DNA of 61,467 bases from Acidimicrobiales bacterium (GTDB taxonomy: Bacteria; Actinomycetota; Acidimicrobiia; Acidimicrobiales; CADCSY01), in contig DATMJI010000035.1 in NCBI GenBank assembly GCA_035553895.1, forward strand, positions 1-61,467. Reading direction: 5' to 3'. Both the position numbers and the translations under genes were made by a program. The notes beneath the pieces are model-generated. The model was not told the origin of the DNA. It searched no databases and saw only the letters and a program-made list of their open reading frames with translations. Position 1 is the stretch's first letter. Each line of letters starts with the position of its first letter. Of this stretch, positions 562 through 52,160 are shown piece after piece.

Positions 562-672
562 GGAGTCCGCCTGCACCTGGGATCGGCGTCCGGTAGACTG
601 GCGAGTGGTTCAGTAGTGAGCCTTCGCCTCGCTGCCTCGGCACTGCACCTGCAGCCAGTGCCGTAGACACCG

Positions 673-1128
673 ATGGGAGGTACGCCGGTGCCGTCGTCGC
701 TGATCGCATCATCACTGGCACCGCTCTGCCGCCCGTTGGTGTGCCCGTCCGGGAACGGGGACCACCCGGTGCTGGCGGGGTCCACCGTAGCCGTGCGGAT
801 CACTGCGGCCGAGGACCCGGGCGAATGCGTGGCCGTGGTGGAGGGTGAGGTGGATCTGCTCAGCGCACCGCTGGTGGCCGAGCACCTCGCGTCGTGCGTC
901 GGCGGGGGTTGCCGGCGGCTCACCGTCGACCTGTCGGGCGTGAGCTTCCTCGGCGCATCGGGATTGTCGGTCCTGGTTGCGGCCAGCGAGGATCTGGGCC
1001 GGAGCGGTGGGCTCCTCGTCCTCCACCGGTCCCGCCCTCTGACCCGGCGCATGTTTGCCATCACCGGCATCGACCAGCTCCCCCACATCGAGGTCAGCGA
1101 CTGCTCCGTCGTCTCCGATGACCGTTGA
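673..1128 (+). CDS. STAS-domain protein (anti-sigma-factor antagonist family)
   Basis: The 151-aa ORF contains VVEGEVDLLSAPLVAEHL...LTVDLSGVSFLGASGLSVLV...MFAITGIDQLPHI, typical of SpoIIAA/RsbV-like STAS proteins. The start is not certain. Confidence 0.7.
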   Translation: MGGTPVPSSLIASSLAPLCRPLVCPSGNGDHPVLAGSTVAVRITAAEDPGECVAVVEGEVDLLSAPLVAEHLASCVGGGCRRLTVDLSGVSFLGASGLSVLVAASEDLGRSGGLLVLHRSRPLTRRMFAITGIDQLPHIEVSDCSVVSDDR

Positions 1129-1468
1129 GGTCCACGTCCGCCAAAATGACGAGGTGCTCGAGGTGTCGCTGTCGGGTGCCATCGACCGGGAGGTGGCCGA
1201 GGTGATCGACGGTGCCGTCCTGGCCGTGGCCGGCCGGACCCGCCTGACCCTGGTCAACCTCGACGGCGCCGTCCTCATCGATCGGGACGGGCTCCAGGCC
1301 ATGGTCAGGCGACTCGTCGACCAGGGAGGCACTGCCCGCGTCGGGCTGGTGTGCGGGCGAAGCGGCTCGGTGGAGCTGCTCCGGCGCTGGGGCATCTCCC
1401 ACCTGCTGCCCGTGTACCCCAGCTTCGACGACGCCCTCCGGCGGGAACCGTCGGCCGGGCCCGCCTAG
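1118..1468 (+). CDS. STAS-domain protein (anti-sigma-factor antagonist family)
   Basis: An internal ATG at 1118 (MTVEVHVRQNDEVLEVSLSGAIDREVAEVIDG...) overlaps the stop of the preceding STAS gene. The layout is STAS-like, with a C-terminal LLRRWGISHLLPVYPSFDDAL. Confidence 0.7.
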   Translation: MTVEVHVRQNDEVLEVSLSGAIDREVAEVIDGAVLAVAGRTRLTLVNLDGAVLIDRDGLQAMVRRLVDQGGTARVGLVCGRSGSVELLRRWGISHLLPVYPSFDDALRREPSAGPA

Positions 1469-1926
1469 CGGCGACCGGCGGGCCGGCGACCGTCTCCGGC
1501 GGGGGACCCCAGCGTCCTCCAGCCGGCGCCGAACCCCAGCTGGTGATGGACCCGTGCCTGCAGGGCGTCGTTGATGCTGGAGAAGACGGGGAGGCCGCTG
1601 GGCCCGAACCGGCGCAGCAGTCGGCGCCCGCTCAGGCGCCGGCTCACCACGCAGAACTGGCGGTCGGCGCCCGTGAGGTCGTGCAGCCCCCCGACCAGGA
1701 CCTCGACGGCCGCCGGCTCGACGATGGTGAGCCGGCTGAGATCGGCCACCACGTGGTGGGCAAGGGGCCGGGCCCGCATCCCGTCGACGGCGGCGGCCGC
1801 CACCGCCGCGCTGCCCAGACCCCGGAGGGCGACCACGACGACGTCATCCGACAGCTCGTGGAGCTGGAAGGGCGCTCGGTGCTCGGAGGTGTCGATCGGG
1901 GGCGCCAGCACCGCGGTCGCCACCAT
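1465..1926 (-). CDS. STAS-domain protein (anti-sigma-factor antagonist family)
   Basis: This is the C-terminal 153 aa of the 1465..2070 ORF (MVATAVLAPPIDTSEHRAPFQLHELSDDVVVVALRGL...LLRRFGPSGLPVFSSINDALQA). It is convergent with the previous gene and the two stops share one CTAG (1465..1468). The start could also be 1995. Confidence 0.65.
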   Translation of the reverse strand: MVATAVLAPPIDTSEHRAPFQLHELSDDVVVVALRGLGSAAVAAAAVDGMRARPLAHHVVADLSRLTIVEPAAVEVLVGGLHDLTGADRQFCVVSRRLSGRRLLRRFGPSGLPVFSSINDALQARVHHQLGFGAGWRTLGSPAGDGRRPAGRR

Positions 1927-2082
1927 CCTGGCGCTCCGGAGCCCCGGTGCACCTCTCTCAGTACCCGGCTCTGGGGCCGGTACGACCTCTGGCATGCGGC
2001 ATGTCCCTTCGCTGGGGTCGATGCTGCGCCGCCAGGGTCCGGGGGGGCGTTGCCCCTCCAGTCTACCCACCCGCCAGGTTCG

Positions 2083-3048
2083 CTACCGGGTGGCTGCGGT
2101 CGGCCCGGGCACGCCACCCGGGCCGCCCAGGTGCTGCAGCGCATCGAGGACGTCGTTCACCCCGATGGCCAGCAGGCCCGGGGCCGGGGCGCCGGCGTGG
2201 GGATCCGAGGTCTGCCCGGCCCAGAGCACGGCGTGGGGACCACTGGGCGGTGGTCCCCAGCGGGCGGGTGCGGTCGGACCGAAGAGGACCACGGACGGCC
2301 GCCCCAGGGCGGACGCCAGGTGGGCGACGCCGGTGTCGCCACAGACGACCCGGCCGGCTCCGTGCACCAGGTGCACCAGCTCCCGCAGCGATGTCCGCCC
2401 GGCGAGGACGGAGTCCGGGCCGAGGCCGGCGTCCCGGGCGACGGAAGCCGCCAGGACCGCTTCCGCCCCCGTCCCGGTGATGGCCACCCGGCGCCCGGCG
2501 CCGGCCTCGGCGGCGGCGACCGCCGCCCAGCGCTCGGCCGGCCAGCACCGGGCTCCGCTGGAGGCCCCCGGGTGGATGATCGTGGCCCCGGCCAGGGCGG
2601 CCAGCCCCGCCGGTGCCGGCGCCGGGACGCCCAGGCGGAAGTCCTCGGGATCGGCAGGGATGCCGTGGTGCTCGAGCAACCGGCACCACCGGACCCGTTC
2701 GTGATCGCGGTCGTCCCAGGCCGGACCTCCGGCCACCTCGAAGGCGATCAGGCAGCCGGGCCGGCTCGCCCGCAGCAGCTCGGTCGAGCGAGGTCCCCGG
2801 CCGTGGAGATTGACGGCCAGGGCGGCGCCGGCGAGAACGGGGTCGAGGGGGACGAGCCCGGGTGTGTCGATCACGGCGTCGACGGCCCCGGTGAGCGCCG
2901 CCAGCGGTGCCAGCGCGGCCGGGGCGGCCAGGAGCCGGCGCCGGCGGGGAAAGGCCCGGGCCAGCGCTCGCAGGGCGGGGACGGCGGTGAGGAGGTCGCC
3001 GAGGTGCAGCGCCCGCAGCACCACGACGGCTCCCGGCGCCGCCCTCAC
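2083..3048 (-). CDS. Glycosyltransferase family 9 (heptosyltransferase-like)
   Basis: Carries VVVLRALHLGDLLTAVPALRAL at the N-terminus and VCGDTGVAHLASALGRPSVVLFGPT near the C-terminus, the hallmark GT9 layout. The GTG start forms a GTGA overlap with the upstream stop. Confidence 0.85.
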   Translation of the reverse strand: MRAAPGAVVVLRALHLGDLLTAVPALRALARAFPRRRRLLAAPAALAPLAALTGAVDAVIDTPGLVPLDPVLAGAALAVNLHGRGPRSTELLRASRPGCLIAFEVAGGPAWDDRDHERVRWCRLLEHHGIPADPEDFRLGVPAPAPAGLAALAGATIIHPGASSGARCWPAERWAAVAAAEAGAGRRVAITGTGAEAVLAASVARDAGLGPDSVLAGRTSLRELVHLVHGAGRVVCGDTGVAHLASALGRPSVVLFGPTAPARWGPPPSGPHAVLWAGQTSDPHAGAPAPGLLAIGVNDVLDALQHLGGPGGVPGPTAATR

Positions 3049-3737
3049 GGCCAGGAGCTCTCCTGGGGCGAGGTCACCACCAGCTCGCGGATCTCGCAGC
3101 CCGGCGCCTGCTCGAGCGCCACCACTACCGCCGCCGCTACCCGCTGGGGGTCGGCCAGGTCGGCGTCGGGCCCGGGCCGGTACTGGGCCTCGCGCCGGTC
3201 GAAGAAGTGCGTCTCCATCCCGCCCGGCGTGAGGAGGGTGACGCCGACTCGACCCTGGAGCTCGGCGGTGAGGGCCCGGGTGAAGCCCACCACCCCGAAC
3301 TTCGAGGCGCAGTAGGCGGTGGCGCCGCCCACCGCCCGGTGTCCCAGGGTCGAGGACACCGTGACCACCTTGCCCCGGGCCGGGATCAGCCAGGGCAGGG
3401 CGGCCCGGATCACCGCCGCCGTGCCCAGGAGGTTCACGGCGACGACGCGCTCCCAGGTGTCGGTGTCGAGTTCGGCGAGGTGACCGGGGACGTCGATGCC
3501 CGCCGAGGTCACGACGGCGTCGATGCGCCCGAGGTCGTCACCCACGCGCCGCAAGGCCTGCTCGGCGTCCTTGGCGCTGGCCAGGTCGACCTGCTGGTAG
3601 GGCCAGGGCCCGGCCGGGGGGCGGACGTCGAGGGCGGCCGGCTGCCAGCCGGCCCGGTGCGCCGCCCAGGCGACCGCCTCGCCGAGGCCGGACGAGGCAC
3701 CGGTGACGACGACGACGGGACGGTCAGGGCTGGACAT
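3045..3737 (-). CDS. Classical short-chain dehydrogenase/reductase
   Basis: Has the VVVTGASSGLG Rossmann motif and the YCASKFG (YxxxK) catalytic motif. The ATG at 3737 overlaps the hldE stop by 14 nt. Confidence 0.85.
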   Translation of the reverse strand: MSSPDRPVVVVTGASSGLGEAVAWAAHRAGWQPAALDVRPPAGPWPYQQVDLASAKDAEQALRRVGDDLGRIDAVVTSAGIDVPGHLAELDTDTWERVVAVNLLGTAAVIRAALPWLIPARGKVVTVSSTLGHRAVGGATAYCASKFGVVGFTRALTAELQGRVGVTLLTPGGMETHFFDRREAQYRPGPDADLADPQRVAAAVVVALEQAPGCEIRELVVTSPQESSWP

Positions 3738-5091
3738 GGCGGGATGCCTCCTCGAGGAGTCGGGTGGTGGATCGGCCCGAGACGTAGGGCACCACGACGG
3801 CGCACCCACCCCAGGCGGCCAGGGTGGCGGCTTCGGGAAGCTCGGCCCCGCCGTAGTCGCCGCCCTTGACGAAGACGTGCGGGCGCAGCGAGCCCAGGGC
3901 GGCGGCTGGGGTGTCCTCGTCGAAGACGTGGACGGCGTCGACCGACCGCAGCGAGCGCAGCACCGCCGCCCGGTCGGCGGCCGGTTGGCGGGGACGGTCG
4001 GGTCCCTTGAGCCGGCGCACGCTGGCGTCGCTGTTGAGGCACACGATCAGGCAGTCGCCCAGGCGGCGGGCGGCCTCGAGGGTGGCGACGTGGCCGGGGT
4101 GCAGCAGGTCGAAGCACCCGCCGGTGGCCACGACCGTGCCCCCGGCGGCGCGGACGCCCGCCGCCAGGTCCCCGGCCGAGGACGGGGCCGGCTGGGGCTC
4201 GGGTGGGGCCCACCCACCGGCACCCCCGCCCGCCACGAACGCCGAGGCGGCCGCCACCGCCACCTCCACCGCCTCGCTCACCACCGCACCACCGGCCAGG
4301 GCGAGGGCGGCGGCCCCGGCGAAGCGGTCACCCGCCCCGCACGGGTCGCCACCGGCGACGGGCGGGGCGGGCACCACCAGCGCCGGGCTGTCCCCGCCGG
4401 CGAGCAGGGCGCCACCTGCACCGCGGGTCACGGCCACCGCCGTCACCCCCCAGCGAGCGGCGAGGACGGCGGCTCGCCGGGCCAGCACCGCCAGGCCCTC
4501 ACCCTCGGCCTCGGGGACCAGCCGGGCCACCTCGGCGGCGTTGGGGGTGGCCAGGCGCACCCCAGGGACGGGCTGGGGGCCCCGGGGGTGGGGGTCCCAC
4601 ACCACGGGTACCGCGGCCCGCAGCGAGACCAGCTGGTCCCGCAGGGCCGGTTGGGCGGCGACGCCGCGGCCGTAGTCGGCCACCACGATGGCATCGGCGC
4701 CGGCCAGGGCCTCGACCACGGCCGGCCCAGGCGCCCCCACGGGGCCCGGCGCACCGCCGCGGTCGAGGCGCAGGAGCGACTGGTCGCCGCTGCGCAGGCG
4801 GACCCGCTCGGCGGTGGCACCGTCGAGGGTCAGGGCGGCCACGTCGACCCCGCCGGCGGCGAGCAGGCGGGCGACCTCGCCACCGGCCTCGTCGGTGGCG
4901 AGGGCGGTGACCAGGGTGACGGTGGCACCCTCGCCGGCCAGCAGCGAGGCGGCCAGCGCCGCCCCGCCCGGCCGGACCCGTTCGCCGTCCTGGTCGAGCA
5001 CCGGGACCGGGGCGTCGGGGCACACCCGCTCGACGGTGCCCGAGACGTCGCGGTCGACGAGGGTGTCGCCGACAACGACCACCCGCCTCAC
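3724..5091 (-). CDS. hldE: Bifunctional D-beta-D-heptose 7-phosphate kinase / D-beta-D-heptose 1-phosphate adenylyltransferase
   Basis: The N-terminus is a ribokinase-like PfkB domain (VVGDTLVDRDV..., GAGDRFAGAAA). The C-terminus is a cytidylyltransferase-like domain (GGCFDLLHPGHVATLEAARRLGDCLIVCLNSD). The GTG start forms a GTGA overlap. Confidence 0.9.
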   Translation of the reverse strand: MRRVVVVGDTLVDRDVSGTVERVCPDAPVPVLDQDGERVRPGGAALAASLLAGEGATVTLVTALATDEAGGEVARLLAAGGVDVAALTLDGATAERVRLRSGDQSLLRLDRGGAPGPVGAPGPAVVEALAGADAIVVADYGRGVAAQPALRDQLVSLRAAVPVVWDPHPRGPQPVPGVRLATPNAAEVARLVPEAEGEGLAVLARRAAVLAARWGVTAVAVTRGAGGALLAGGDSPALVVPAPPVAGGDPCGAGDRFAGAAALALAGGAVVSEAVEVAVAAASAFVAGGGAGGWAPPEPQPAPSSAGDLAAGVRAAGGTVVATGGCFDLLHPGHVATLEAARRLGDCLIVCLNSDASVRRLKGPDRPRQPAADRAAVLRSLRSVDAVHVFDEDTPAAALGSLRPHVFVKGGDYGGAELPEAATLAAWGGCAVVVPYVSGRSTTRLLEEASRHVQP

Positions 5092-5693
5092 CCCTGCACC
5101 TCCAGCGCCCTGGACGCGCCTACGGCGACGTCGACGGCGGCGCAGAGCAGGTGCACGGCGACCTGGTGGACCTCCTGGACGGTGGCGGTGTACGGGGCGT
5201 CGACGGACACGGCGTCGTCGGCCAGCGCCACCAGGGGATTGGGGGACCGGCCGGTGAGGGCCCAGGTGCGCAGGCCGCGCTCGGTGCCGGCCCGCACGGC
5301 GGCGAGGACGTTGGGGCTGCGGCCCGAGGTGGAGAGGGCCACGAGGATGTCCCCCGGTCGCCCGTGGGCCCGGACCTGGCGGGCGTAGAGCTCGTCGGGG
5401 GGGTAATCGTTGGCGATGGCGGTGAGGGCCGAGGTCTCGGCGTGCAGGGAGATGGCGCTGAGGGGCTGGCGCTCGTCGCGGTAGCGGCCCACCAGCTCTG
5501 ACGTGAGGTGCTGGGCCTGGGCGGCGCTGCCGCCGTTGCCCACGGCCAGCAGGCGCCCGCCGCCGCAGAGGACCCGGGCGGCGTGGGTGCCCCAGCCCTC
5601 GAGGCGGGCCAGGTCGGCTTCGAGGGCGACCAGGGGGCGCCGGAGGGCGGCCAGGTGGGCCCGGCCGGCGGGAAGGCTCGAACCGCCGCTCAT
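5088..5693 (-). CDS. gmhA: Phosphoheptose isomerase (SIS domain)
   Basis: The internal ATG at 5693 gives MSGGSS...LLAVGNGGSAAQAQHLTSELVGRY...ALSTSGRSPNVLAAV, matching GmhA motifs. It forms an ATGA overlap with the upstream stop. Confidence 0.9.
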   Translation of the reverse strand: MSGGSSLPAGRAHLAALRRPLVALEADLARLEGWGTHAARVLCGGGRLLAVGNGGSAAQAQHLTSELVGRYRDERQPLSAISLHAETSALTAIANDYPPDELYARQVRAHGRPGDILVALSTSGRSPNVLAAVRAGTERGLRTWALTGRSPNPLVALADDAVSVDAPYTATVQEVHQVAVHLLCAAVDVAVGASRALEVQG

Positions 5694-6901
5694 GGCGTTC
5701 GCCTTGCCGCCGCCGGCTCGACGTCGGCCAGGGCCTGGACGGCGCTGAGGGTCTCGGTGGCGATGTGGTCCCAGGAGAAGCGCTGGGCCCGCCGGCGACC
5801 GGACTGGCCGAGCCGACACCGCGCCACCGGGTCGCCCAGGAGCCGGCGCAGGGCGGCGGCGATGGCCGCCGGCGACCGGGGGGGCACGTGGGCGCCGGTG
5901 ACGCCGTCGACGACCGTCTCGGCCAGGCCCCCGACGGCGGAGGCCACCACGGCCACGCCGCAGGCCATGGCCTCGAGGGCGGTGATGCCGAAGGGCTCGT
6001 ACCACGGCGTGGTCACGAACACGTCGGCCGAGCGCAGCAGCGCCGGTACGCCGGGGCGGGGGACGGCACCGAGGAGCTGTACCCGCTCCCCCAGGCCCAG
6101 CCGGTCGGCCAGGGCCACGAAGCGCTGGGCCTCGGGATCGTCGTCGACCATCCCCGCCGGGGGGCCGCCCGCCACCACCAGCTCGGCGTCGGGAACCATC
6201 GCCATGGCCTCGATGAGGTTGCCGATGCCCTTGCGCTCCACCAGCCGGCTGACGGCCACCACCCGGGGGCGGCCCCCGCGGCGGGGGGTGCGGGGGCCGT
6301 GAGGGTGGAAGTGCCCCATGTCGACGCCGCAGGGCACGACGGAGATCCGCTCATCGTGGGCCCCCATGGCCAGCAGCTCCCGCCGCTCGTCGCCGCTGGT
6401 GGCGATGAGGCGGTCGACGTGGCGGGCCAGCCGGCGCTCGATAGCCAGGCGCGGCGGCGGGCTGGTGTCGGCCGTGCCCTGGTGGCGCCGCTTCACCGTG
6501 CCGAGAGCGTGGAAGGTGTGGGCCAGCGGGATGCCGAGCGCACCGGTCGCCTCCAGGGCGGCCAGGCCCGACATCCAGAAGTGGGAGTGGACCACGTCGG
6601 GCCGGTCCTGCGACCACTGCCGGGCGAGATCCTCGGCGAAGGGGGCCATGGTGGGCAGGAGGTCGTCCTTGGCCAGCGGGGCGGCGGGACCGGCGTCGAC
6701 GTGGTCGACCCAGACCCCCGGGGCGAAGGCCACCCGGCGGGGCAGGAGGGGATCGTCCCGGCGGGTGTGGACCACGACCTCGACGCCCTGGCGGGCCAGG
6801 GCCCGGGCCAAGTCGGCGACGTGGACGTTCTGGCCACCGGCGTCGACGCCGCCCAGCAGGGCCAGCGGGCTGGCGTGTTCGGAGACCATGGCGATCCTCA
6901 C
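5690..6901 (-). CDS. Glycosyltransferase family 4 (GT-B fold, MshA-like N-terminus)
   Basis: Has an MRIAMVSEHASPLALLGGVDAGGQNVHVADLARALARQG N-terminus and a C-terminal EPFGITALEAMACGVAVV (E-x7-E region). It forms a GTGA overlap with the upstream gene. Confidence 0.85.
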   Translation of the reverse strand: MRIAMVSEHASPLALLGGVDAGGQNVHVADLARALARQGVEVVVHTRRDDPLLPRRVAFAPGVWVDHVDAGPAAPLAKDDLLPTMAPFAEDLARQWSQDRPDVVHSHFWMSGLAALEATGALGIPLAHTFHALGTVKRRHQGTADTSPPPRLAIERRLARHVDRLIATSGDERRELLAMGAHDERISVVPCGVDMGHFHPHGPRTPRRGGRPRVVAVSRLVERKGIGNLIEAMAMVPDAELVVAGGPPAGMVDDDPEAQRFVALADRLGLGERVQLLGAVPRPGVPALLRSADVFVTTPWYEPFGITALEAMACGVAVVASAVGGLAETVVDGVTGAHVPPRSPAAIAAALRRLLGDPVARCRLGQSGRRRAQRFSWDHIATETLSAVQALADVEPAAARRTP

Positions 6902-7863
6902 CGTGCCACCCCGGCCAGCAGTGCGTCCCAGTCGGCCAGGAAACGTTCCAGGCCGTAGCGCTCGAGCACCGCCGCCCGCGCCGCCTTGCCCACCCGGCGG
7001 GCGTCCTCGGGGTCGTCGACGAAGTGCTGGAGGGCGTCGCCGAGCACGGCGAGGTCGTTGGAGACCACACCGGCCGAGGGCGGCACTGCCACCGGCACCT
7101 CGGTGGTGGCCAGGGCGACGACGGGCATGCCCAGGTGCATGGCCTCGATGAGGGCGAGCCCCAGCGAGGTCCAGCGCACGGGATGGAGGTAGACCCGGCG
7201 CCGGGCCAGCTCGGCGTGCATCCGGTGCTGGGGCACGTCGCCGTAGGCGGTGATGTCGTGGCCCCGCTTTTGCTGCTCCCCGGCGAAGCCGGTGCTGCCC
7301 ATGCCGAAGAGGTCGATGCCGACCCGGGCGGCGAAGGCGCCCAGCAGGTCGGAGCCGGTCACCCGGTTGCGGCGCCCGGCCTCGTTGACGACCACGGCCG
7401 CCCGTTCCCGTTCGCCGCCGTAGCGGTGGCCGGGGTCGACGATGCCGTGCTCGATCACCACCGTGGGCGTGGAGCCGCAGTCCCAGAACAACCGGTTGGT
7501 GTGGGTCACGTGGACCACGGTGAGGTCATCGCGGTCAGCCGCCGGGTGGCGCAGGTCGGCGATGCGCCCCTGCGGCGCGTTGTGCTCCACCCACACCGCG
7601 GGCAGGTCACGCCCCGGTCGCCGCCCGAGCCAGGCAGCCGCCAACTCCTCGTCCCGGGGGCGCTGGAGGATCACCACGTCGACGTCCTCGTGGCCCAGTT
7701 GGGCCGGTGTGCGCTCGACGGCTGACGCCGGCCATTCCCAGGTACGGGCTCGGCCCCGCCCGTCGGGGCCCCGGCCACCGTCAACCGGGATCAGGTAGCG
7801 ATGCGGTCCCTGGACCAGCGCCGTGGTCCACGAGCCGTGCACGTGCCACACCAGGACGTTCAT
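6898..7863 (-). CDS. Glycosyltransferase family 4-like
   Basis: The real start is the ATG at 7863 (MNVLVWHVHGSWTT...). The C-terminal SLGLALIEAMHLGMPVVALATTE is GT1/GT4-like. It forms an ATGA overlap with the upstream stop. The 474-aa ORF extension is an artefact. Confidence 0.75.
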   Translation of the reverse strand: MNVLVWHVHGSWTTALVQGPHRYLIPVDGGRGPDGRGRARTWEWPASAVERTPAQLGHEDVDVVILQRPRDEELAAAWLGRRPGRDLPAVWVEHNAPQGRIADLRHPAADRDDLTVVHVTHTNRLFWDCGSTPTVVIEHGIVDPGHRYGGERERAAVVVNEAGRRNRVTGSDLLGAFAARVGIDLFGMGSTGFAGEQQKRGHDITAYGDVPQHRMHAELARRRVYLHPVRWTSLGLALIEAMHLGMPVVALATTEVPVAVPPSAGVVSNDLAVLGDALQHFVDDPEDARRVGKAARAAVLERYGLERFLADWDALLAGVAR

Positions 7864-8891
7864 GCCGGCACCCGCAGCCTGCGTCCGGCCAGGGTGGCGA
7901 CGGCGTCGACCACCGCCTCGGGGGTGACGCCGGCCAGGCAGGGTTGGTCCTCGACGGGGCAGGACCGGGCTCGGCAGCCGGCGCAGGCGATGTCGTGGTC
8001 GCCGAGGAGGATCGAGGGCACCCCCCAGGGCCGCCACCGCTCGGGGGGGACGACGGGGGCGAAGATGGAGACCACGGGCGTGGCCACGGCCGCCGCCAGG
8101 TGGGCCGGACCGGTGTTGCCGCTCACCACCACCTCGGCTCCGGCCAGCACCCCGGCCAGCCCGGCCAGATCGAGTGCACCCCCGAGGTCGGCGACGTCCG
8201 CCTGCGGGTCTCCGGCCACCGTGGCGGTGAGGTGGCGCTCGGCGCTCCCGCCGGTGACCGCCACCTGGTACCCGCCGGCGGCCAGGAGCTGCACGCAGGC
8301 GGCGGCCCGGCCGGCGTCCCAACCCCGGGCCGGGACCGATGCACCGGGATGCAGGACCACGTAGCGCCCGGCGAACGGGCGCCAGGTGGGCAGCGGCCGG
8401 CGCACGGCGAGGCGGCCGGTGTCGCCGGCGGCCAGCCGGTGCCCGAAGCGCTCGGCCAGCGAGAGGGCCTGCTCGACCTCGTGGCGGCGAGGGTCGTCGC
8501 CGTGGCGCACGTCGAGCAGGGAGCCGGGGTGATCGGCGCAGGTGGCCCCGATCTCGGCCACGCCGGCCATGCGCAACAGCAGAGCCAGGGGCAGGGGGCT
8601 CTGGTGGAACGAGGTGAGGACGAGGGCCCGGTCGATCCCCAGGGTGCCCAGGTGGTCGACCAGTCCGTCCAGCGCCGATCGCTCCACCGCCGGGGCGTCG
8701 TCGCCTACCCAGGGGGCGTCGACGGCCACCACCTCGTCGACCCCGGGCAGGAGGCGGGCGGCGGCCGCCCCCCGGCCGGCGAGGAAGGTGACCCGGGACG
8801 CCCCGGTGGCCACCGCCCGCACCGCCGGGCCGCTGAGCAGGACGTCGCCGAGGTTGTCGAGGCGAGCGACGAGCACATGAGGCGCCCTCAC
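7860..8891 (-). CDS. Glycosyltransferase family 9 (heptosyltransferase-like)
   Basis: The GTG at 8891 gives VRAPHVLVARLDNLGDVLLSGPAVRAV...VVSGNTGPAHLAAAVATPVVSIFAP, which is the GT9 layout. It forms a GTGA overlap with the upstream stop. Confidence 0.85.
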   Translation of the reverse strand: MRAPHVLVARLDNLGDVLLSGPAVRAVATGASRVTFLAGRGAAAARLLPGVDEVVAVDAPWVGDDAPAVERSALDGLVDHLGTLGIDRALVLTSFHQSPLPLALLLRMAGVAEIGATCADHPGSLLDVRHGDDPRRHEVEQALSLAERFGHRLAAGDTGRLAVRRPLPTWRPFAGRYVVLHPGASVPARGWDAGRAAACVQLLAAGGYQVAVTGGSAERHLTATVAGDPQADVADLGGALDLAGLAGVLAGAEVVVSGNTGPAHLAAAVATPVVSIFAPVVPPERWRPWGVPSILLGDHDIACAGCRARSCPVEDQPCLAGVTPEAVVDAVATLAGRRLRVPA

Positions 8892-10399
8892 CGCCGGACT
8901 CCGAGGATCATGTCGGTGGCGGCAATGAGGTCGGGAGCCACGGCGGCCCCCCCGCCGGGGCGCCACCGGGTCCGTCGCACCTCCAGGCGCCGGGTGGCCG
9001 GGGTGGGGACGAGCACGGCCCGGGCCCCGGCGGCCCGGGCGGCGTCGACGTCGCTGCCGATGTCGCCCACGACCACGCACTGCGACGGGGCCACGCCCAG
9101 CTCGGCCGCCGCCTTGTCGATGAGGCCGGGACGGGGCTTGCGGCAGGCGCAGCCGTCCCCGGACCCGTGGGGGCACACGGCGACGGCGTCGAAGGGGCCG
9201 AGCAACTCCCCGACCCGGGCGTTGACGGCGTCGACCTCGGCGGCAGTGATCAGGCCCCGCGCCACCCCGCTCTGGTTGGTGACCAGGCCGAGGGCGACTC
9301 CCGCCGCCCGCAGGCGGGACAGCGCCCCGGCGGCAGCCGCCACCGGGGCCACGAGGGCCGGATCGCCGTTGTAGGCGACGTCGTGGATCAGGGTGCCGTC
9401 GCGGTCGAAGAGCACGGCCAACGGCCTGGTGCCGGCCAGCGGTGCCTGGCGGCGGGCCCGCGCTTCGCCGGCCAGGCGGTGGCCCACGGCCAGGGGGGGG
9501 ATGGCGGCCGAGGTCACGACCATGGTGGCCACCTCGGCCGGGGTCCGTGGTCCGGGGGCGATGCGCCGGCGGGCGAAGCCGGCGCTGCCGGCGGCCCACG
9601 CCAACCCGCCGGCCGCAGCCAGCCGGCGCCGGCCGGCGGCGGCACTCACGCCTGCGGCCAGGCCAGCGGCAGTCACCGCGGCGTGGCGCCGCAGGGCACC
9701 GCTCGGGGCCCCGGCCGCCGGGCGCCAGTGCCGGCCGTGGAGGCGGCCCATCAAGGCGTCGTCGGCGTTGCCCCGCTGCTTGGCCAGGCTGACCGACCAG
9801 GAGGCGGGGGGCACGGGGTGGCGGACGCGGCGCCGGCCCATGGCCAGATCGAGACCACGGTCGGCCAGGCGCAGGGCGAGGTCGGCATCCTCCCGGTAGG
9901 CGCGGGGGAAGCGCTCGTCGAAGCCACCGACCTCGACCAGGGCCCGCCGCCGCACGGCCAGATCGGCGGTGATCCAGCGGCTGGTTTCGAGCCCGGCCAC
10001 ATTGCGCTCCCAGTCGGTGGGGCGCCGGTGCTGCGGCAGCGGGACCTCGACCTGCCCCTGGACGGCGGCCACCTGGTCGCCGGCACCTTCCAGGTCGCCG
10101 GCCAGGTCCTCGGCCCAGCGGGAGTCGACGATCACGTCGTCGTCGAGGAAGGCGACCCAGTCGGCCCTGCTGGCCCGCCATCCGGCGTTGCGGGCGGCGG
10201 CCGGTCCCCAGCCTCGCCCGGCCAGCACCTGGACGCGCTCGTCGGCGGAGGGGAGCGCCGGCAGGGTCCCGGCGCCGGGGCGGTCGTAGACGACGAAGAC
10301 GCGGCCGGGAAGCGGTTGGGCGAGCAGGGTGTCAAGCAGGACGGCGAGCGATGGCCGGCCCAGCGAGGGGATCACCACGTCGGCGGCGGGCCCCGTCAC
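8888..10399 (-). CDS. Fusion protein: GT2 glycosyltransferase, hydrophobic linker, then HAD-type D,D-heptose 1,7-bisphosphate phosphatase (GmhB-like)
   Basis: N-terminus: VVIPSLGRPSLAVLLDTL...FLDDDVIV...ITADLAVRRRAL (GT2). C-terminus: AVLFDRDGTLIHDV...LVTNQSGVARG...CPHGSGDGCACRKPRPGLI...VVVGDIGSDVDAA (GmhB). The GTG start at 10399 forms a GTGA overlap. Confidence 0.8.
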   Translation of the reverse strand: MTGPAADVVIPSLGRPSLAVLLDTLLAQPLPGRVFVVYDRPGAGTLPALPSADERVQVLAGRGWGPAAARNAGWRASRADWVAFLDDDVIVDSRWAEDLAGDLEGAGDQVAAVQGQVEVPLPQHRRPTDWERNVAGLETSRWITADLAVRRRALVEVGGFDERFPRAYREDADLALRLADRGLDLAMGRRRVRHPVPPASWSVSLAKQRGNADDALMGRLHGRHWRPAAGAPSGALRRHAAVTAAGLAAGVSAAAGRRRLAAAGGLAWAAGSAGFARRRIAPGPRTPAEVATMVVTSAAIPPLAVGHRLAGEARARRQAPLAGTRPLAVLFDRDGTLIHDVAYNGDPALVAPVAAAAGALSRLRAAGVALGLVTNQSGVARGLITAAEVDAVNARVGELLGPFDAVAVCPHGSGDGCACRKPRPGLIDKAAAELGVAPSQCVVVGDIGSDVDAARAAGARAVLVPTPATRRLEVRRTRWRPGGGAAVAPDLIAATDMILGVRR

Positions 10400-12045
10400 G
10401 GCGCCGGTGCGAACAGGGTTGCCCGGCGGACGAGGAAGGGTCCCAGGGCCAAAGCGTCGATCGGCGCCGAGCCGAAGCACTCGAGGGCGTCCCGAGGATC
10501 GTCGACCATCGGCCGCCCGGCGGTGTTGAGGGAGGTGTTCACCACCACCGGGAGGTCGGTGCGGCGCTCGAAGGCGCTGAGGCAGCGGTGCAGGAGCGCT
10601 TCGTCGCCGCGCTCGACGGTCTGGATGCGGGCCGTGCCGTCGACGTGGACCACGGCGGGGATGCGGTCCTGCCAGTCCGGTCGCACCCGGTGCACGAAGA
10701 GCATGTAGGGGCTGGGGAAGGGCCCGCCCTCGAAGACGTCCTTGGCCCGCTCGGCCAGGACCATGGGGGCGACCGGGCGGAACTGCTCCCGACCCTTCAC
10801 GTCGTTCAGGCGTTCGAGATTGGCCCGCCGCCCCGGGTGGGCCAGCAGGCTGCGATGGCCCAGCGCCCGGGGACCGAACTCCGAGCGGCCCTGGAACCAG
10901 GCCACGATCCCGTCGTCGGCCAGCACGCCGGCCACCGCCTCGGCGATGTCGGCCGGCTCCTCGTAGGGCACCTTGGCCACCTCCAGGACCCGGCGGAGGT
11001 CGGCATCGCCCCACTGGCGCCCGAGGGCGGGGGAACCCATGGGCCGGACCTGGTCACCGAGGTCGTGGGCCGCCACCAGGGCCGCCCCCAGGGCGGTCCC
11101 GGCGTCGCCGGCGGCGGGCTGGACCCAGACGTCGTCGAACGGCCCCGCTTCGAACACCCGGGTGTTGGCCACGCAGTTGAGGGCCACGCCGCCGGCCAGG
11201 GCCAGGGCCCGCTCGCCCGTCCGCTCGTGCAGCCAGCCGGCCAGCTCCACTACCAGCTCTTCCAGGCGGGCCTGGACGCTGGCGGCCAGGTCGGCGTGGG
11301 CCGGGTCCAGGGTGCCGTCGCCCTGGCCGGGCGGGGCCAGGGCAGCCCAGTCGACGGGCTCGGTCACGATGCCCCCATCCGGAACGGCGCGTACCAGGTG
11401 GCGGAAGCGGTCCAGGTGGCGGGGCGTGCCGTAGGAGGCCAGCGCCATCACCTTGTACTCGTCACTCGAACGGCGGTAGCCGAGGTGGGCGGTCAGCTCC
11501 TCGTAGACCAGGCCCACCGAATGGGGGAGCTCGGTCTGGGCCAGTACTTCGAGGTCACCGCCGCCAGCCCGGCCGGCGAGGAACGATCCCCGCTCGCCCC
11601 GGCCGTCGAGCACGAGCACGGCGCACGAGGGGAAGGGGCCGCCCAGGTAGGCCGAGGCGGCGTGGGCCACGTGGTGGGGGACGAAGCGCACCACGCCGGG
11701 ATCGAGGCCGGGAAGGGCGCTGGCCAGGAAGCGGGGAGCGCGCTCGGTGTACAGCGTGCGCAGCGGCTCCCAGGGATCGGTCCCCGGGTGCAGGCCGTCG
11801 AAGGCGAGGGCGGGGTCGTAGGAGTAGGCCACGGCGTCGAGCTGGCCCGGGGGGACACCGGCGTGGTCGAGGCACCACCGGGCCGAGAGCTCGGGCAGCT
11901 CCCAGGTCGAAAAGGCCACCGGCACCTTGGCGTGCTTGCGCCGGTTGAAGCGCTCCTCCTCGGCAGCGGCCACGGTGACGCCGTCGACGACCAGCGCAGC
12001 TGCGCTGTCATGGAAGACCCCGTTGACGCCCAGGACTGCGGCCAT
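10396..12045 (-). CDS. Carbamoyltransferase (NodU/CmcH family)
   Basis: MAAVLGVNGVFHDSAAALVVDGVTVAAAEEERFNRRKHA is the canonical N-terminus of this family. The ATG is at 12045. Confidence 0.85.
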   Translation of the reverse strand: MAAVLGVNGVFHDSAAALVVDGVTVAAAEEERFNRRKHAKVPVAFSTWELPELSARWCLDHAGVPPGQLDAVAYSYDPALAFDGLHPGTDPWEPLRTLYTERAPRFLASALPGLDPGVVRFVPHHVAHAASAYLGGPFPSCAVLVLDGRGERGSFLAGRAGGGDLEVLAQTELPHSVGLVYEELTAHLGYRRSSDEYKVMALASYGTPRHLDRFRHLVRAVPDGGIVTEPVDWAALAPPGQGDGTLDPAHADLAASVQARLEELVVELAGWLHERTGERALALAGGVALNCVANTRVFEAGPFDDVWVQPAAGDAGTALGAALVAAHDLGDQVRPMGSPALGRQWGDADLRRVLEVAKVPYEEPADIAEAVAGVLADDGIVAWFQGRSEFGPRALGHRSLLAHPGRRANLERLNDVKGREQFRPVAPMVLAERAKDVFEGGPFPSPYMLFVHRVRPDWQDRIPAVVHVDGTARIQTVERGDEALLHRCLSAFERRTDLPVVVNTSLNTAGRPMVDDPRDALECFGSAPIDALALGPFLVRRATLFAPAP

Positions 12046-12098
12046 GGCCCACCTCACCGGAAGGCGGAGCGCACGCCTCGCTGCTGAAGCACGACCCG

Positions 12099-12156
12099 CC
12101 GCGGTCGAGAAGTAACTACCTCTGGCCCGGCGGGGACAAACACTTCTCCACCGCGG
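12099..12156. repeat. 15-bp inverted repeat (one mismatch) with a 28-nt spacer, directly after the GT2 stop
   Basis: ccgcggtcgagaagt (12099..12113) pairs with acttctccaccgcgg (12142..12156). The spacer has lower GC. Confidence 0.6.
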
Positions 12157-13074
12157 TCAGGGCCGGTGGCCGGCGACGGCCTCGGCCTGGGCCTCGGTCG
12201 CCGGGCTCAGGCGGCGGCGCCGGGCGCGGGCCCGGCGGTGGTGGCGAGCCAGCTCCCAGAGGGCGAGGCGGGCGACGGGATCGCGCCGGGCGGCTACGGC
12301 CAGCGCCCGGGTGCGGCGGTACGCCACCGGAGCCGGTCGCCGCAGCCAAGCGGTCAGCACCTCGTTGCGCAGCAACCGCGCCCGCCGGACCTCCCCGTCC
12401 CGGGGACCGCGGGGATGGTGGTGGGCCACCGTCTTCTCGTCGTAGCAGCAGCGCCAGCCGGCCTCGGCCAGGTCCAGGGCCAGCAGTTCCTCCTCGCCGG
12501 CGAAGAACAGGAGGTCGTCGAAGCCACCCACCGCCAGGAACGCGTGGCGGCGCACGACGGCCGAGCACGCCAGGAAGCCGAGCACCTCGGGCCCGGGCCC
12601 GCGGCGAGCCGGCCCGAGTGGGGAGGCGGCCAGGAGGGCGTTGAGGGGGTCCTCCCGGCGCTGGGGACCCACGAGGGTGCGGCCCGCCACCACGGCCACG
12701 TCCTGGTGGAGATCGAGGATCCCGCTGGCTTGGGCCAGCGCCCCGGGCGCCCACCAGGAGTCGTCGTCGGCGAAGGCGACGTAGGGGGTGGTGCTGGCGC
12801 CCACCCCCAGGTTGCGGGCCGTCGCCCCCACGTTGGTTGGCAGGGAGACCACCCGGACCGCGGGGTGGAGGGCGGCGACCGCTCTGGGGGTCCCGTCGCT
12901 CGAGCCGTTGTCGACGACGATGATCGGTGGTCGTTCCGGGAGCGCGACCAGGTGCGAGAGCGTCTCCAGCAGCTGCTGGCGGCGGTCCCGGGTGATGACG
13001 ACGACCGACACCCGGGCCGGGGGCACCGGGATGGCGGACGGAGCCGGACCGGCTGGCGGTCGGCCCGGCTCCAC
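12157..13074 (-). CDS. Glycosyltransferase family 2
   Basis: Carries VSVVVITRDRRQQLLETLSHL...IIVVDNGSSDGT...FADDDSWW, which are GT2 motifs. The start is either the GTG at 13074 (SD directly adjacent) or the GTG at 13011. Confidence 0.8.
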   Translation of the reverse strand: MEPGRPPAGPAPSAIPVPPARVSVVVITRDRRQQLLETLSHLVALPERPPIIVVDNGSSDGTPRAVAALHPAVRVVSLPTNVGATARNLGVGASTTPYVAFADDDSWWAPGALAQASGILDLHQDVAVVAGRTLVGPQRREDPLNALLAASPLGPARRGPGPEVLGFLACSAVVRRHAFLAVGGFDDLLFFAGEEELLALDLAEAGWRCCYDEKTVAHHHPRGPRDGEVRRARLLRNEVLTAWLRRPAPVAYRRTRALAVAARRDPVARLALWELARHHRRARARRRRLSPATEAQAEAVAGHRP

Positions 13075-13084
13075 CTCCTTCAGC

Positions 13085-13531
13085 TCAGGAGCCGGCCGGC
13101 CCGGCGTCGATGGCGGTCGCCTTGGAGTTGCCGGTGCCGACCTGGACCTTGCGGGGCTTGGCCTGCTCGGCCACGGGGACGGTCACGGTGAGGACGCCGG
13201 CGTCGTAGCTGGCCGTCACCTGTTCGGCATCCAGGCTCTCGCCGAGGAAGAGCTGGCGGCTGAAGGTGCCCTGCGGGCGTTCGGACGCCACGATCTGTTG
13301 GTCCTCGCTCGGCCGCCACTGGCGATCGGCCGACACGGTCAGCACGTTCTTCTCCACGGTGAGGTCGATCGACGACGGGTCGACGCCGGGGAGGTCGAAA
13401 TGGACGACGAACTGGTCTCGCTCCCGGTAGGCGTCCATGGGCATGACGGCGGCACGGGTACCCGTCTCGAAGGCCCGGGTCAGCCGGTCGAACTCACGGA
13501 ACGGGTCGGATCGCATCAACATGGCTGCCAT
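13085..13531 (-). CDS. Hsp20/alpha-crystallin family small heat-shock protein
   Basis: The ATG at 13531, preceded by GAAAGGGAG, gives MAAMLMRSDPFREFDRL...VVHFDLPGVDPSSIDLTVEKNVLTV...ASYDAGVLTVTVP. Confidence 0.9.
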   Translation of the reverse strand: MAAMLMRSDPFREFDRLTRAFETGTRAAVMPMDAYRERDQFVVHFDLPGVDPSSIDLTVEKNVLTVSADRQWRPSEDQQIVASERPQGTFSRQLFLGESLDAEQVTASYDAGVLTVTVPVAEQAKPRKVQVGTGNSKATAIDAGPAGS

Positions 13532-13643
13532 CTCCCTTTCTCGTCTCTGGCTCGTCTCTGGGTGTGGGCTGCCGCCCGCGCTGGACGATGCCCGGGCCGG
13601 CGAGGGCCTACACCTGGCGCTACGGGCAGGCCCCGCCCACCAA

Positions 13644-13696
13644 GGGAATTCGGGAGATCCGAGCGGCTCAGCCGCCTGGATGCTCCACAATGGCCT
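13644..13696. repeat. Palindromic REP-like element, subfamily 1, diverged copy
   Basis: gggaattcgggagatccgagcggctcagccgcctggatgctccacaatggcc. It is related to the copies at 14163 and 14241. Confidence 0.7.
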
Positions 13697-13795
13697 CGAC
13701 ACCGCGGTTGTTTCCCTGCGGCAGAGGTGGGGCAACTCCCCGGCGTGGCCCCCACCGACGGCCCCCGATCCCCTCGACCGGTGACGAGACCGGTG

Positions 13796-14122
13796 ATGCT
13801 TGCCCGCCCCCGCCCGCGGCGCCGGTTTCTCGCCGCCCTGGCCGTGGCCGGGCTGGCCGCCTGCGGTGGCGGTGCCGGGGAGGACGAGGCCCGCTTCTGC
13901 GATGCCGCCGCCGAGGAGGTGGAGGCGTTCCGCAGTGCCCAGGGCCAGGTCTCGCCGGCCATCATCGGGGTGCTGCGAGAGCTGGTGCGCGAGGCTCCCG
14001 GCGAGTTGGCCGACGACTTCGAGACCGTCACCGAGTCCACCAGCGAGCAGGAGGCGGACCGGGCCCTGGCCGAGATCGAAAGCTTCCTCATCGGGCGCTG
14101 CGACCTGGACGTCCGCTCCTGA
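13796..14122 (+). CDS. Small putative lipoprotein
   Basis: MLARPRPRRRFLAALAVAGLAACGGG is a signal peptide with an L-A-A-C lipobox. The protein is 108 aa. I recognise no family. Confidence 0.55.
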   Translation: MLARPRPRRRFLAALAVAGLAACGGGAGEDEARFCDAAAEEVEAFRSAQGQVSPAIIGVLRELVREAPGELADDFETVTESTSEQEADRALAEIESFLIGRCDLDVRS

Positions 14123-14162
14123 GTGCCGGGATCAGGTGGGCCGGGTGGGGTCGTGCCCGCGT

Positions 14163-14228
14163 CCGCATGGGATTCGGGAGGATCCGAGCGGCTCAGCCGC
14201 TCCGATCCTCCACAATTGGCCCATGCGG
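14163..14228. repeat. Palindromic REP-like element, subfamily 1
   Basis: The outer arms are ccgcatggg and cccatgcgg. The core is ggaggatccgagcggc-tca-gccgctccgatcctcc, with one mismatch, and it ends in cacaattggcc. Confidence 0.8.
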
Positions 14229-14240
14229 GCCCGCCCGCCG

Positions 14241-14289
14241 ATTGTGGAGGATCCGAGCGGCTCCGCCTCCTCGATCCTCCGGAATGGGG
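14241..14289. repeat. Palindromic REP-like element, subfamily 1, opposite orientation
   Basis: attgtggaggatccgagcggctccgcctcctcgatcctccggaatgggg. Its reverse complement aligns with the 14163 copy. Confidence 0.75.
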
Positions 14290-14311
14290 AAGGCGGCCGG
14301 CGAGCGAGCCC

Positions 14312-14911
14312 TCAGACCAGGGTGATCCCCGCGCCGGCCATGGTCTCCAGGGCCCGGGCGCCGTCACCCGGATGGAGCTCGACGGCAGCGGTGGCCTCGA
14401 CCACCACCGCCGTGTCGTAACCCAGGCGCCGGGAATCGAGGGCGGTGGCCTGCACGCACACGTCCCGGGCCAGGCCCACGACGACCACCCGGGTGGTGCC
14501 CCAGTCCTCCAGCACGGCCCGGAGATCGGTCGGGACGTCTCGGCCGGTGGCGACGTCGCGGGCAAAGAACCCCGAGTAGCCGTCCTCGCCTCCCGTTCCC
14601 TTGCGCACCACGGGGCCGACGGTGTCGAGGTCGGGGTGGAGCTGGGCACCCCAGGTGTCCCGCACGCAGTGCACCGGCCAGGTCCCACCGTGGGTGGCGA
14701 AGTGGGGGGTCTCGGGCGGGTGCCAGTCCTGGGTGAACACGACGCCCGCCCCGGCCGCCCGGGCGGTGGCGGCCAGGTCGTTGACGAGCGGGATGATCCC
14801 GTCCCCGCCGGTGACGAAGAGCGATCCCGACGGATCGGCGAAGTCGTTCTGGACGTCGACCACGACGAGGGCGCAGCGCTCGTCGAAGTCGATCCCGGCG
14901 GTGGGGGTCAC
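14312..14911 (-). CDS. pncA: Nicotinamidase/pyrazinamidase (isochorismatase family)
   Basis: The GTG at 14911 forms a GTGA overlap with the pncB stop. The product reads ALVVVDVQNDFADPSGSLFV...WPVHCVRDTWGA...VVVVGLARDVCV. Confidence 0.85.
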   Translation of the reverse strand: MTPTAGIDFDERCALVVVDVQNDFADPSGSLFVTGGDGIIPLVNDLAATARAAGAGVVFTQDWHPPETPHFATHGGTWPVHCVRDTWGAQLHPDLDTVGPVVRKGTGGEDGYSGFFARDVATGRDVPTDLRAVLEDWGTTRVVVVGLARDVCVQATALDSRRLGYDTAVVVEATAAVELHPGDGARALETMAGAGITLV

Positions 14912-17463: not shown

Positions 17464-17601
17464 GAGCGAGCCCTACCCGGTCCCCCTCCGGGCGGGAAAC
17501 GTGGAGCCCGCCGCCGTCGCATCAGCGCAGTGGAGCTGCAAGGGTGGGGCCGTGGTGGGGAGGACCGACAGGCGGTGGCTCCGGGACCGCACCGCCGATC
17601 G

Positions 17602-18123: not shown

Positions 18124-18150
18124 CGCCGGAGCCTCGAGGTCGCCGACCGG

Positions 18151-32638: not shown

Positions 32639-32713
32639 GCGCCGCACCGGCCGGCCACGCCCCCCGCGCCGGACGCTCCCCGCCGAGCCGGGCTGGGCTA
32701 GGGTCGGCCCGCA

Positions 32714-36195: not shown

Positions 36196-36250
36196 GCGGA
36201 CACGAGATCGCCACCCTCCCCTCGAACGCCAGGGCGACGGGGGAGCGCGC

Positions 36251-43391: not shown

Positions 43392-43393
43392 GG

Positions 43394-44164: not shown

Positions 44165-44268
44165 GGCGTCAGGTCCTCGACATCGAACCGGGAACGGCCG
44201 TGAGTGTCGTGCCCGCGCCCGCGTGCCTCGGGCTTCCGTAGGCCACGGCGTTCACGGTGACGCACCAG

Positions 44269-51112: not shown

Positions 51113-51142
51113 TGTGCCGCCCATGAGAGGAGGTCTTGTCCC

Positions 51143-51619: not shown

Positions 51620-51626
51620 CCCTGCG

Positions 51627-52145: not shown

Positions 52146-52160
52146 TGGCTGGCACTGCCC

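Follow-up and report, generated by a model that had tools for sequence, protein, structure and literature searches.

A compact gene cluster in an Acidimicrobiales genome, probably a version of the actinobacterial cwg operon with heptose-pathway homologues

The gene block at 2083-13074

We analysed contig DATMJI010000035.1 of an Acidimicrobiales bacterium (assembly GCA_035553895.1), and refer to its whole length of 61,467 nt as the window. Positions 2083-13074 hold ten minus-strand open reading frames (ORFs), which combine homologues of ADP-heptose pathway enzymes with glycosyltransferases and a carbamoyltransferase. Here, we found that nine of these genes recur as a syntenic core across Actinomycetota and match, in families and in order, the cwg ('cell wall glycan') operon of Streptomyces coelicolor; the cluster is therefore probably the Acidimicrobiia-type version of that operon. 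In the 5'->3' order of the genes, the features of the locus are the following.

12157-13074, minus strand: GT2, accessory family-2 glycosyltransferase, related to cwgK/cwgL, upstream of the core
12099-12156, minus strand: hairpin with 15-bp arms and a 28-nt A+T-richer loop, directly after the GT2 stop codon
10396-12057, minus strand: O-carbamoyltransferase of the NodU/TobZ/NovN family, first core gene, cwgB counterpart
8888-10399, minus strand: GT2-GmhB fusion of a GT-A domain, a three-helix linker and a HAD-IIIA domain, cwgC + cwgD counterpart
7860-8891, minus strand: GT9a, family-9 glycosyltransferase, heptosyltransferase-like, cwgE counterpart
6898-7863, minus strand: GT4L, shortened, divergent GT4 paralogue, cwgF counterpart
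5690-6901, minus strand: GT4, retaining GT-B enzyme, MshA/sucrose-phosphate synthase-like, cwgG counterpart
5088-5693, minus strand: GmhA, sedoheptulose-7-phosphate isomerase type, SIS fold, cwgH counterpart
3724-5091, minus strand: HldE, bifunctional heptose-7-phosphate kinase / heptose-1-phosphate nucleotidyltransferase by homology, cwgI counterpart
3045-3737, minus strand: classical short-chain dehydrogenase/reductase (SDR) of 230 aa (adh_short 132 bits; TGASSGLG and YCASK motifs)
2083-3048, minus strand: GT9b, family-9 glycosyltransferase, heptosyltransferase-like, last core gene, cwgJ counterpart

Since long ORFs mean little by themselves at the G+C content of this region (~77%), we checked the composition of the codon positions. 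Each of the ten ORFs carries the signature of high-GC coding DNA, with a GC3 of 0.90-0.96 and a GC2 of 0.50-0.62, and in a sliding frame plot the frame changes exactly at the proposed junctions. An earlier sequence-only reading of this DNA had described the same ten-gene minus-strand block with seven 4-nt overlaps and one 14-nt overlap; coordinates, order, codon composition and frame plot agree with it, and all eight overlaps are present. GTGA overlaps lie at 3045/3048, 5088/5091, 6898/6901, 8888/8891 and 10396/10399, ATGA overlaps at 5690/5693 and 7860/7863, and HldE and the SDR share 14 nt (3724/3737). Only the GT2 and the carbamoyltransferase do not overlap; a spacer of 99 nt (12058-12156) separates them. 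With a 4-nt overlap at seven of nine junctions the block is dense, but the tight packing is partly a habit of the genome: such overlaps are frequent elsewhere in the window, e.g. at 19740/19743, 28667/28670, 41126/41129 and 59035/59038.

A scan of species-representative genomes gave at least 80 related loci, to which all counts out of 80 refer. All nine genes from the carbamoyltransferase to GT9b are present in 34/80, in identical order in 16 of those, so that the conservation in related Actinobacteria, which the sequence-only reading had left as a check, is confirmed for a nine-gene core. These colinear relatives also bear on the choice of start codons. A metagenome contig from ENA (L081, 13349 nt) is 99.9% identical to the window over 13.3 kb with 4 gaps and thus represents the same species; its automatic gene caller placed downstream starts in GT9a (338 aa), GT4 (399 aa) and the carbamoyltransferase (549 aa), and two of the 4-nt overlaps hinge on this choice (GT9a and GT4). 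We consider the overlapping starts of GT9a and GT4 the better reading, because 16/16 colinear relatives keep the -4 nt junction for GT4L/GT4 and 15/16 for GT9a/GT4L, and because GT4 homologue alignments start at residue 1-2. For the carbamoyltransferase, translation probably begins with the ATG at 12045, as indicated by the GAGGTGG ribosome-binding site before it together with the 549-aa call on L081. The same contig carries the GT2-HAD fusion as two called genes (2902-4415; 295 + 211 aa), presumably owing to an indel that stems from misassembly or from strain variation.

The G+C content of 2001-10000 is 0.75-0.79, compared to 0.66-0.74 for most of the window beyond 26 kb. Apart from this, we saw no further sign of a foreign origin of the cluster.

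Heptose-pathway enzymes

Families were assigned by Pfam, NCBIfam and PDB searches, which reproduced the calls of the sequence-only reading for all ten genes and led to no unrelated family. GmhA matches SIS_2 with 79 bits (cutoff 27), and its top NCBIfam models are phosphoheptose isomerases (PRK13936, 171 bits against a cutoff of 276; TIGR00441, 154 against 209); its relatives are 55-71% identical. HldE consists of a PfkB and a CTP_transf_like domain. Its top NCBIfam model is PRK11316 (262 bits against 521), with 137 against 345 bits for domain I and 174.2 against 181.5 for domain II, and its PDB matches are HldC (5x9q) and HldA (4e84). The protein carries a GAGD motif at 251, HPGH at 324 and YVSGRSTT at 436. 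An arginine at the corresponding G-R-STT position is found in 40/66 related HldE sequences, the others having Tyr or His there. Arginine at position 5 ('STTR5') has been linked to the synthesis of CDP- and UDP-heptose (PMC11461863), and the GRSTT of the present HldE possibly points to these products besides ADP-heptose.

The third enzyme is the HAD half of the fusion protein, in which Pfam detects a Glycos_transf_2 and a HAD domain. The HAD domain exceeds the cutoff of TIGR01656 (110.8 bits against 84) and scores 107.5 bits against the 178 of GmhB PRK08942. DDD, DRDGT and C-x-H...C-x-C-RKP motifs, the latter two being the DxDxT nucleophile and the zinc loop, are invariant in 14 sequences. An AlphaFold2 model has a mean confidence (pLDDT) of 87 and also places the linker helices confidently; the best structural matches of the modelled HAD domain are the GmhB structures 3l8h and 2gmw with template modelling (TM) scores of 0.77-0.81 (3l8h: TM 0.80, 34% identity). 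More than 7400 homologues of the fusion exist, essentially all of them actinobacterial where named. The GT2 domain was followed up as a lead to a lipid carrier, i.e. as a polyprenyl-phosphate glycosyltransferase, and was dropped as such since it resembles generic GT-A enzymes instead.

Judged by these scores, the cluster enzymes appear to be divergent relatives of the Gram-negative ones rather than orthologues by curated thresholds, and shared substrates are not guaranteed. No HldD was found in the cluster or the window, in agreement with the sequence-only reading: the sole extended SDR of the window (42345-43394) belongs to another sugar cluster, and the cwgA-like extended SDR found beside the cluster in relatives reaches 58 bits, compared to the 274.6 required for TIGR02197 (HldD). 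In the absence of a 6-epimerase, the heptose would be expected to stay in the D,D form.

Does the locus belong to a diderm organism and encode its lipopolysaccharide (LPS) inner core? GmhA, HldE, GmhB, two GT9s and a GT4 do match the assembly set of an LPS core, and the two systems share the SIS isomerase, the PfkB kinase-nucleotidyltransferase fusion, the zinc-loop HAD, the GT9s and a GT4, with soluble enzymes that presumably work at the inner membrane face, as we propose here. Such an identity is nevertheless extremely improbable. The trigger factor encoded in the window is 71-80% identical to proteins of Acidimicrobiales/Actinomycetota metagenome-assembled genomes (MAGs) among its best named matches, which places the organism in this group and bears out the actinobacterial-type genome assumed from the sequence alone. 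Among the matches listed, the closest homologues of every cluster gene are actinobacterial, every equivalog cutoff of the LPS enzymes was missed, and Pfam scans of the window ORFs revealed no family of lipid A or 3-deoxy-D-manno-octulosonic acid (Kdo) biosynthesis that would supply the acceptor. The cluster further differs from the LPS-core system by its lack of HldD, its monoderm-type actinobacterial host, the added carbamoyltransferase and SDR, and the fusion of GmhB to a GT2. Since the cluster sequence occurs in soil metagenomes, its source appears to be an uncultured soil lineage of Acidimicrobiia type.

Heptose is also known from glycoconjugates without LPS. The S-layer glycans of Aneurinibacillus thermoaerophilus are made from GDP-D-glycero-alpha-D-manno-heptose, and the mycobacterial Rv0112-0115 genes likewise belong to this type. 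That pathway shares GmhA and a GmhB-type phosphatase with the cluster, but proceeds via the GHMP kinase HddA and the guanylyltransferase HddC on the alpha anomer, whereas here a PfkB-type kinase is fused to an HldC-type nucleotidyltransferase, which corresponds to the beta anomer.

Sugar transfer and modification

Both GT9s match PF01075 far above its cutoff of 22 bits (GT9a 81.7, GT9b 88.7) and match WaaC/WaaF in the PDB with 35-39 bits; the PDB matches are 3tov and WaaC for GT9a, and WaaC and WaaF (38-39 bits) for GT9b. GT9b has an N-terminal LHLGD motif and keeps its last position in the block in relatives. The best NCBIfam models are heptosyltransferase III for GT9a and the LPS heptosyltransferases I, II and III for GT9b, all under cutoff; the GT9 scores were 69.6 bits of 185, 63.7 of 135 and 68.6 of 170 for the three models (the last one from GT9a), and 18.7 of 200 for the TibC/AAH equivalog. 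From the family and the co-location with the heptose pathway, we infer that the donor of both enzymes would be an NDP-heptose.

The faint match of GT9a to the TibC/AAH model raises the question whether the GT9s O-heptosylate a protein as TibC and AAH do, for instance the S-layer/SLH surface protein encoded at 16309-17463, 3 kb upstream, all the more as heptose-containing S-layer glycans built from GDP-heptose exist in Gram-positive bacteria such as Aneurinibacillus. This, however, is improbable, given that the match reaches 18.7 bits of the 200 required. No SLH protein was recurrent beside the other 80 loci, for which the SLH protein itself did not serve as a query, and the cluster is present in Streptomyces and in mycobacteria, which are not known to have S-layers.

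GT4 is a well-supported member of its family (Glycos_transf_1 141 bits, Glyco_transf_4 132 bits) with the EX7E motif EPFGITALE; it scores 261 bits against the 462 required for MshA (TIGR03449), and its nearest solved relatives are the sucrose-phosphate synthase Tll1590 (221 bits) and MshA of C. glutamicum (189 bits). In GT4L, only the C-terminal half matches Glycos_transf_1 (40 bits), while profile-profile alignment places the protein on residues 99-393 of GT4 with a probability of 97.9%. The consensus of the GT4L family, RWTSLGLSLlEAM, has the first Glu of EX7E replaced. The accessory GT2 matches Glycos_transf_2 with 75.6 bits, has MftF-like and EpsD-like models as its best NCBIfam matches, and starts behind a GAAGGAG ribosome-binding site 10 nt past the stop of hsp20.

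Among the tailoring enzymes, the carbamoyltransferase contains both domains of its family (Carbam_trans_N 174 bits, Carbam_trans_C 217 bits) and matches NovN, GdmN and TobZ in the PDB (323, 287 and 283 bits), NovN and TobZ over the full length. The SDR has a GAGGAGG ribosome-binding site ahead of its ATG. It lies between HldE and GT9b in 46/80 related loci and is absent in Streptomyces and Geodermatophilaceae.

Conservation across Actinomycetota and correspondence to cwg

Is this gene arrangement a common feature of Actinomycetota? The nine-gene core recurs at 45-71% identity in Acidimicrobiales, Euzebyales, Gaiellaceae and Solirubrobacteraceae, i.e. among others in the classes Acidimicrobiia and Thermoleophilia, further in Actinomycetes including Nocardia, Mycobacterium and Streptomyces, and in Amycolatopsis, Cellulomonas and Kocuria; among the fetched genome loci, the highest mean identity over the cluster proteins is about 62%. 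The accessory GT2 behaves differently: relatives have one or two copies, which are located upstream and divergent, upstream and co-directional (as here), or downstream. MAG contigs assigned to Dormibacteria, Methylomirabilota, Binatia and Acidiferrales (loci L030, L035, L052 and L063) carry the same cluster as well, either because it has spread laterally outside Actinomycetota or because these contigs were mis-binned.

Beside the cluster, relatives frequently carry further sugar genes. A UDP-glucose/GDP-mannose dehydrogenase is found in 17/80 loci (e.g. L024, 6846-8165), a cwgA-type SDR resembling NDP-sugar 4,6-dehydratases and UDP-xylose synthases in 35/80 (e.g. L075, 7317-8324), and a weakly matching pyruvyltransferase in 9/80, the other neighbours being lineage-specific. 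The first two hint at uronic acid or pentose units in the glycan of those lineages; neither UDP-glucose dehydrogenase nor cwgA-type SDR adjoins the cluster of the window.

This breadth also bears on whether the locus is a secondary-metabolite cluster for a heptose-containing natural product akin to septacidin or hygromycin B. Actinomycete products of this kind do use heptoses derived from sedoheptulose-7-phosphate (PMC9978623), and carbamoyltransferases like TobZ, NovN and GdmN are typical tailoring enzymes. We nonetheless regard such a product as highly improbable: nine genes with their order and tight coupling are common to several actinobacterial classes, a pattern of a core genome, there is no polyketide synthase, non-ribosomal peptide synthetase, aminotransferase, resistance or export gene, and the neighbours are housekeeping genes. 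The septacidin and hygromycin B branches, albeit actinomycete and with the same starting sugar (PMC9978623), belong to sporadic natural-product clusters, in contrast to the conserved, syntenic, housekeeping-like operon described here.

Instead, the cluster corresponds to cwg. According to PMC6767563, PMC5839063 and PMC5882110, this operon of S. coelicolor (sco6179-6190) was named in 2002 by Hong, Paget & Buttner. It comprises 12 genes, is a target of sigmaE and responds to vancomycin by induction (Tran et al. 2019, PMC6767563). Published annotations describe sco6183/cwgE as a putative heptosyl transferase (PMC5882110), sco6186/cwgH as a phosphoheptose isomerase, sco6187/cwgI as a bifunctional synthase/transferase and sco6179/cwgA as a nucleotide-sugar dehydratase (2025-26 preprint). 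In the Streptomyces loci, which are 46-69% identical to the window cluster, we found a block of dehydratase-like SDR, carbamoyltransferase, GT2, HAD, GT9, GT4L, GT4, GmhA, HldE, GT9, GT2 and GT2. This 12-gene order fits the per-gene annotations of sco6179-6190, and we therefore take the cluster, with the same families in the same order, to be a cwg homologue. The two versions differ in detail. The GT2 and HAD genes are separate in Streptomyces and fused here; cwgA stands first in Streptomyces and is absent beside the window's cluster; the classical SDR is present only here; two downstream GT2s face one upstream GT2; and the junctions are much tighter here than in Streptomyces.

Limits of the transcription unit

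The 99-nt spacer upstream of the carbamoyltransferase contains the hairpin, whose arms (12099-12113 and 12142-12156) are 93% complementary and whose loop is the least G+C-rich part of the spacer. The fold of 12040-12175 reaches -70.5 kcal/mol, with a z-score of only -1.9. We detected no U-tract, nearby sigma70-like site, Rfam match or second copy in the window for this hairpin; it may terminate transcription or serve in RNA processing, or its position may coincide with that of the core operon's promoter. Generic scans of 1-15000 returned no sigma70-like promoter or intrinsic terminator, and Rfam models matched two tRNAs only, which leaves the spacer without a known riboswitch or leader.

The hairpin spacer together with the variable position of the GT2 in relatives points to the nine-gene core as the putative conserved transcription unit. 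The ten-gene operon of the sequence-only reading therefore stands for the nine conserved genes, while the tenth, the GT2, is better described as a mobile accessory behind the spacer. Two adjacent genes were considered as further members and rejected: orf201 (1465-2070, minus strand), 12 nt past GT9b, has no Pfam match and no homologue beside related clusters, and hsp20, located directly upstream, does not recur beside the cluster in related loci.

Proposed pathway and destination

Building on the observed gene content, motifs, synteny and cwg orthology, we propose a chemistry, an acceptor and a destination for the pathway. The PfkB half of HldE would phosphorylate the heptose to the beta-1,7-bisphosphate, the HAD-IIIA domain of the fusion would take off the 7-phosphate, and the product would be ADP-heptose, possibly also CDP- or UDP-heptose in view of the G-R-STT motif; without a 6-epimerase, it would stay D,D. 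The two GT9s would then attach heptose, GT4, GT4L and one or two GT2s would attach other sugars, the NodU/TobZ-type enzyme would O-carbamoylate the product and the SDR would modify a sugar. A simple hydropathy scan of the ten proteins revealed no clear transmembrane segment, and because all ten thus appear soluble or peripheral, assembly would most likely take place on the cytoplasmic side, with a lipid or another molecule as the acceptor and with export genes elsewhere. There is a precedent in the LPS core, where enzymes of the WaaC/WaaF family act on a membrane-anchored acceptor.

The lack of transmembrane segments and of a linked transporter would equally suit a soluble, cytoplasmic glycoside. 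In such a scheme, a sugar phosphate rather than a wall polymer would be glycosylated, similar to a compatible solute or mycothiol, and the HAD domain would also, or instead, dephosphorylate this glycoside. Indeed, sucrose-phosphate synthase and MshA, the nearest solved relatives of GT4, both take a sugar phosphate as acceptor, with a phosphatase acting next; in S. coelicolor, salt and cold induce cwgA (PMC13011467, 2025-26 preprint), and a heptosyltransferase is up under salt in Frankia. We consider this explanation unlikely. The HAD domain has a zinc loop of the GmhB/HisB type with GmhB as its best structural match, six glycosyltransferases seem excessive for a simple solute, the LPS-core precedent involves an anchored acceptor, and cwg answers cell-wall antibiotics via sigmaE.

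We favour the cwg-type pathway proposed above, and hold this reading of the cluster, including the proposed enzymology and assembly, to be probable. Several observations weigh against it. The NCBIfam equivalog cutoffs for GmhA, HldE, GmhB and the heptosyltransferases I-III were all missed. Neither the cluster nor the genes that recur beside it in the 80 loci include a transporter (such as an ABC transporter), flippase, polymerase, priming phosphoglycosyltransferase or ligase (such as an LCP ligase). For a sigmaE-type promoter (AAC, 16-17 nt, CGTCT), the sole AAC...CGTC match in 11900-14400 lies inside the GT2 coding sequence, so that this feature of cwg was not recovered here, and the published cwg promoter was absent from the 80 loci, Streptomyces included, at <=6 mismatches. 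Public sequencing runs with the cluster sequence comprise soil-metagenome DNA only and no RNA run. Finally, the literature searched, to 2026, reports no heptose-containing cwg product or glycan, and recent citations of cwg give no product structure (PMC6767563; PMC13011467, 2025-26 preprint). The sequence-only reading had gone further in assigning the product to an envelope or protein glycan, a claim that was not borne out, as the cluster has no linked gene for a transporter, flippase, priming transferase or ligase; an envelope destination is thus putative.

A bolder picture is conceivable, which we put forward as speculation and rather doubt in its entirety: a so far unseen, phylum-wide oligosaccharide resembling an LPS core, rich in D,D-heptose, O-carbamoylated, anchored to lipid or wall and, given the G-R-STT motif of HldE, maybe made from CDP- or UDP-heptose instead of ADP-heptose alone, with the fused GT2-GmhB and an obligately coupled GT9-GT4L-GT4 trio forming an assembly complex, and with the window preserving the ancestral compact nine-gene form.

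The cluster itself is not a novelty, but a compact, fused-gene member of the long-known cwg family. That such actinobacterial clusters are poorly characterised, as had been stated from the sequence alone, is correct for the product, but not for the operon, which bears a name since 2002 and is a known sigmaE and vancomycin target. For more than 20 years, cwg has served as a marker of envelope stress in Streptomyces while being chemically unsolved. That nine genes and their overlaps are conserved from Acidimicrobiia to Mycobacterium speaks for a function of great age that has been kept by selection, in the envelope or the stress biology of actinobacteria of both monoderm and mycolate type. Moreover, heptose nucleotides are innate-immune agonists sensed by ALPK1 (PMC11461863), which would make widespread actinobacterial producers relevant beyond Gram-negative bacteria. 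The gain from this window is modest, namely one further copy, from a soil lineage that is uncultured and not experimentally tractable; what deserves to be kept is the phylum-wide synteny with its overlaps, the widespread GT2-GmhB fusion, the Arg motif of HldE and the lack of linked export functions.

Genomic neighbourhood

The rest of the window consists of chromosomal housekeeping genes (tig-clpP-clpX, folC, nuo genes, NAD salvage). Downstream of the cluster lie a GAF-ANTAR regulator cut off by the window edge (1-561), two plus-strand STAS-domain proteins (673-1128 and 1043-1468) and orf201, which is STAS-like by eye only. On the other side, the hsp20-pncA intergenic region (13635-14287) harbours three copies of a ~59-nt element with the palindromic core GATCCGAGCGGCTCAGCCGC; two adjacent copies form a 49-nt inverted pair. 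This core has 4 matches compared to 0.05 expected and occurs nowhere else in the window; the element looks like an intergenic repeat of the repetitive extragenic palindrome or miniature inverted-repeat transposable element (REP/MITE) type.

The SLH protein mentioned above (minus strand) contains two SLH domains and an invasin-like Ig domain; the ORF beside it (17473-18174) has no Pfam match, and we saw no gene for a csaB-like pyruvyltransferase in the window. Another sugar-nucleotide cluster, unrelated to the one described above, lies at 39939-44251 (minus strand) and comprises two Methyltransf_14 C-methyltransferases, the NAD-dependent epimerase/dehydratase at 42345-43394 and a nucleotidyltransferase, which suggests a C-methylated deoxysugar as its product. 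The nuo genes occupy 46640-57780 (plus strand). The gene of the 49-kDa subunit ends at 49851 and NuoH starts at 50048, and the lack of space for nuoE/F/G in between points to a complex I locus of the 11-subunit type. Separate from these, three antiporter-type genes resembling NuoL/M/N are located at 32702-37792 (plus strand), with a FecR-domain protein after them.

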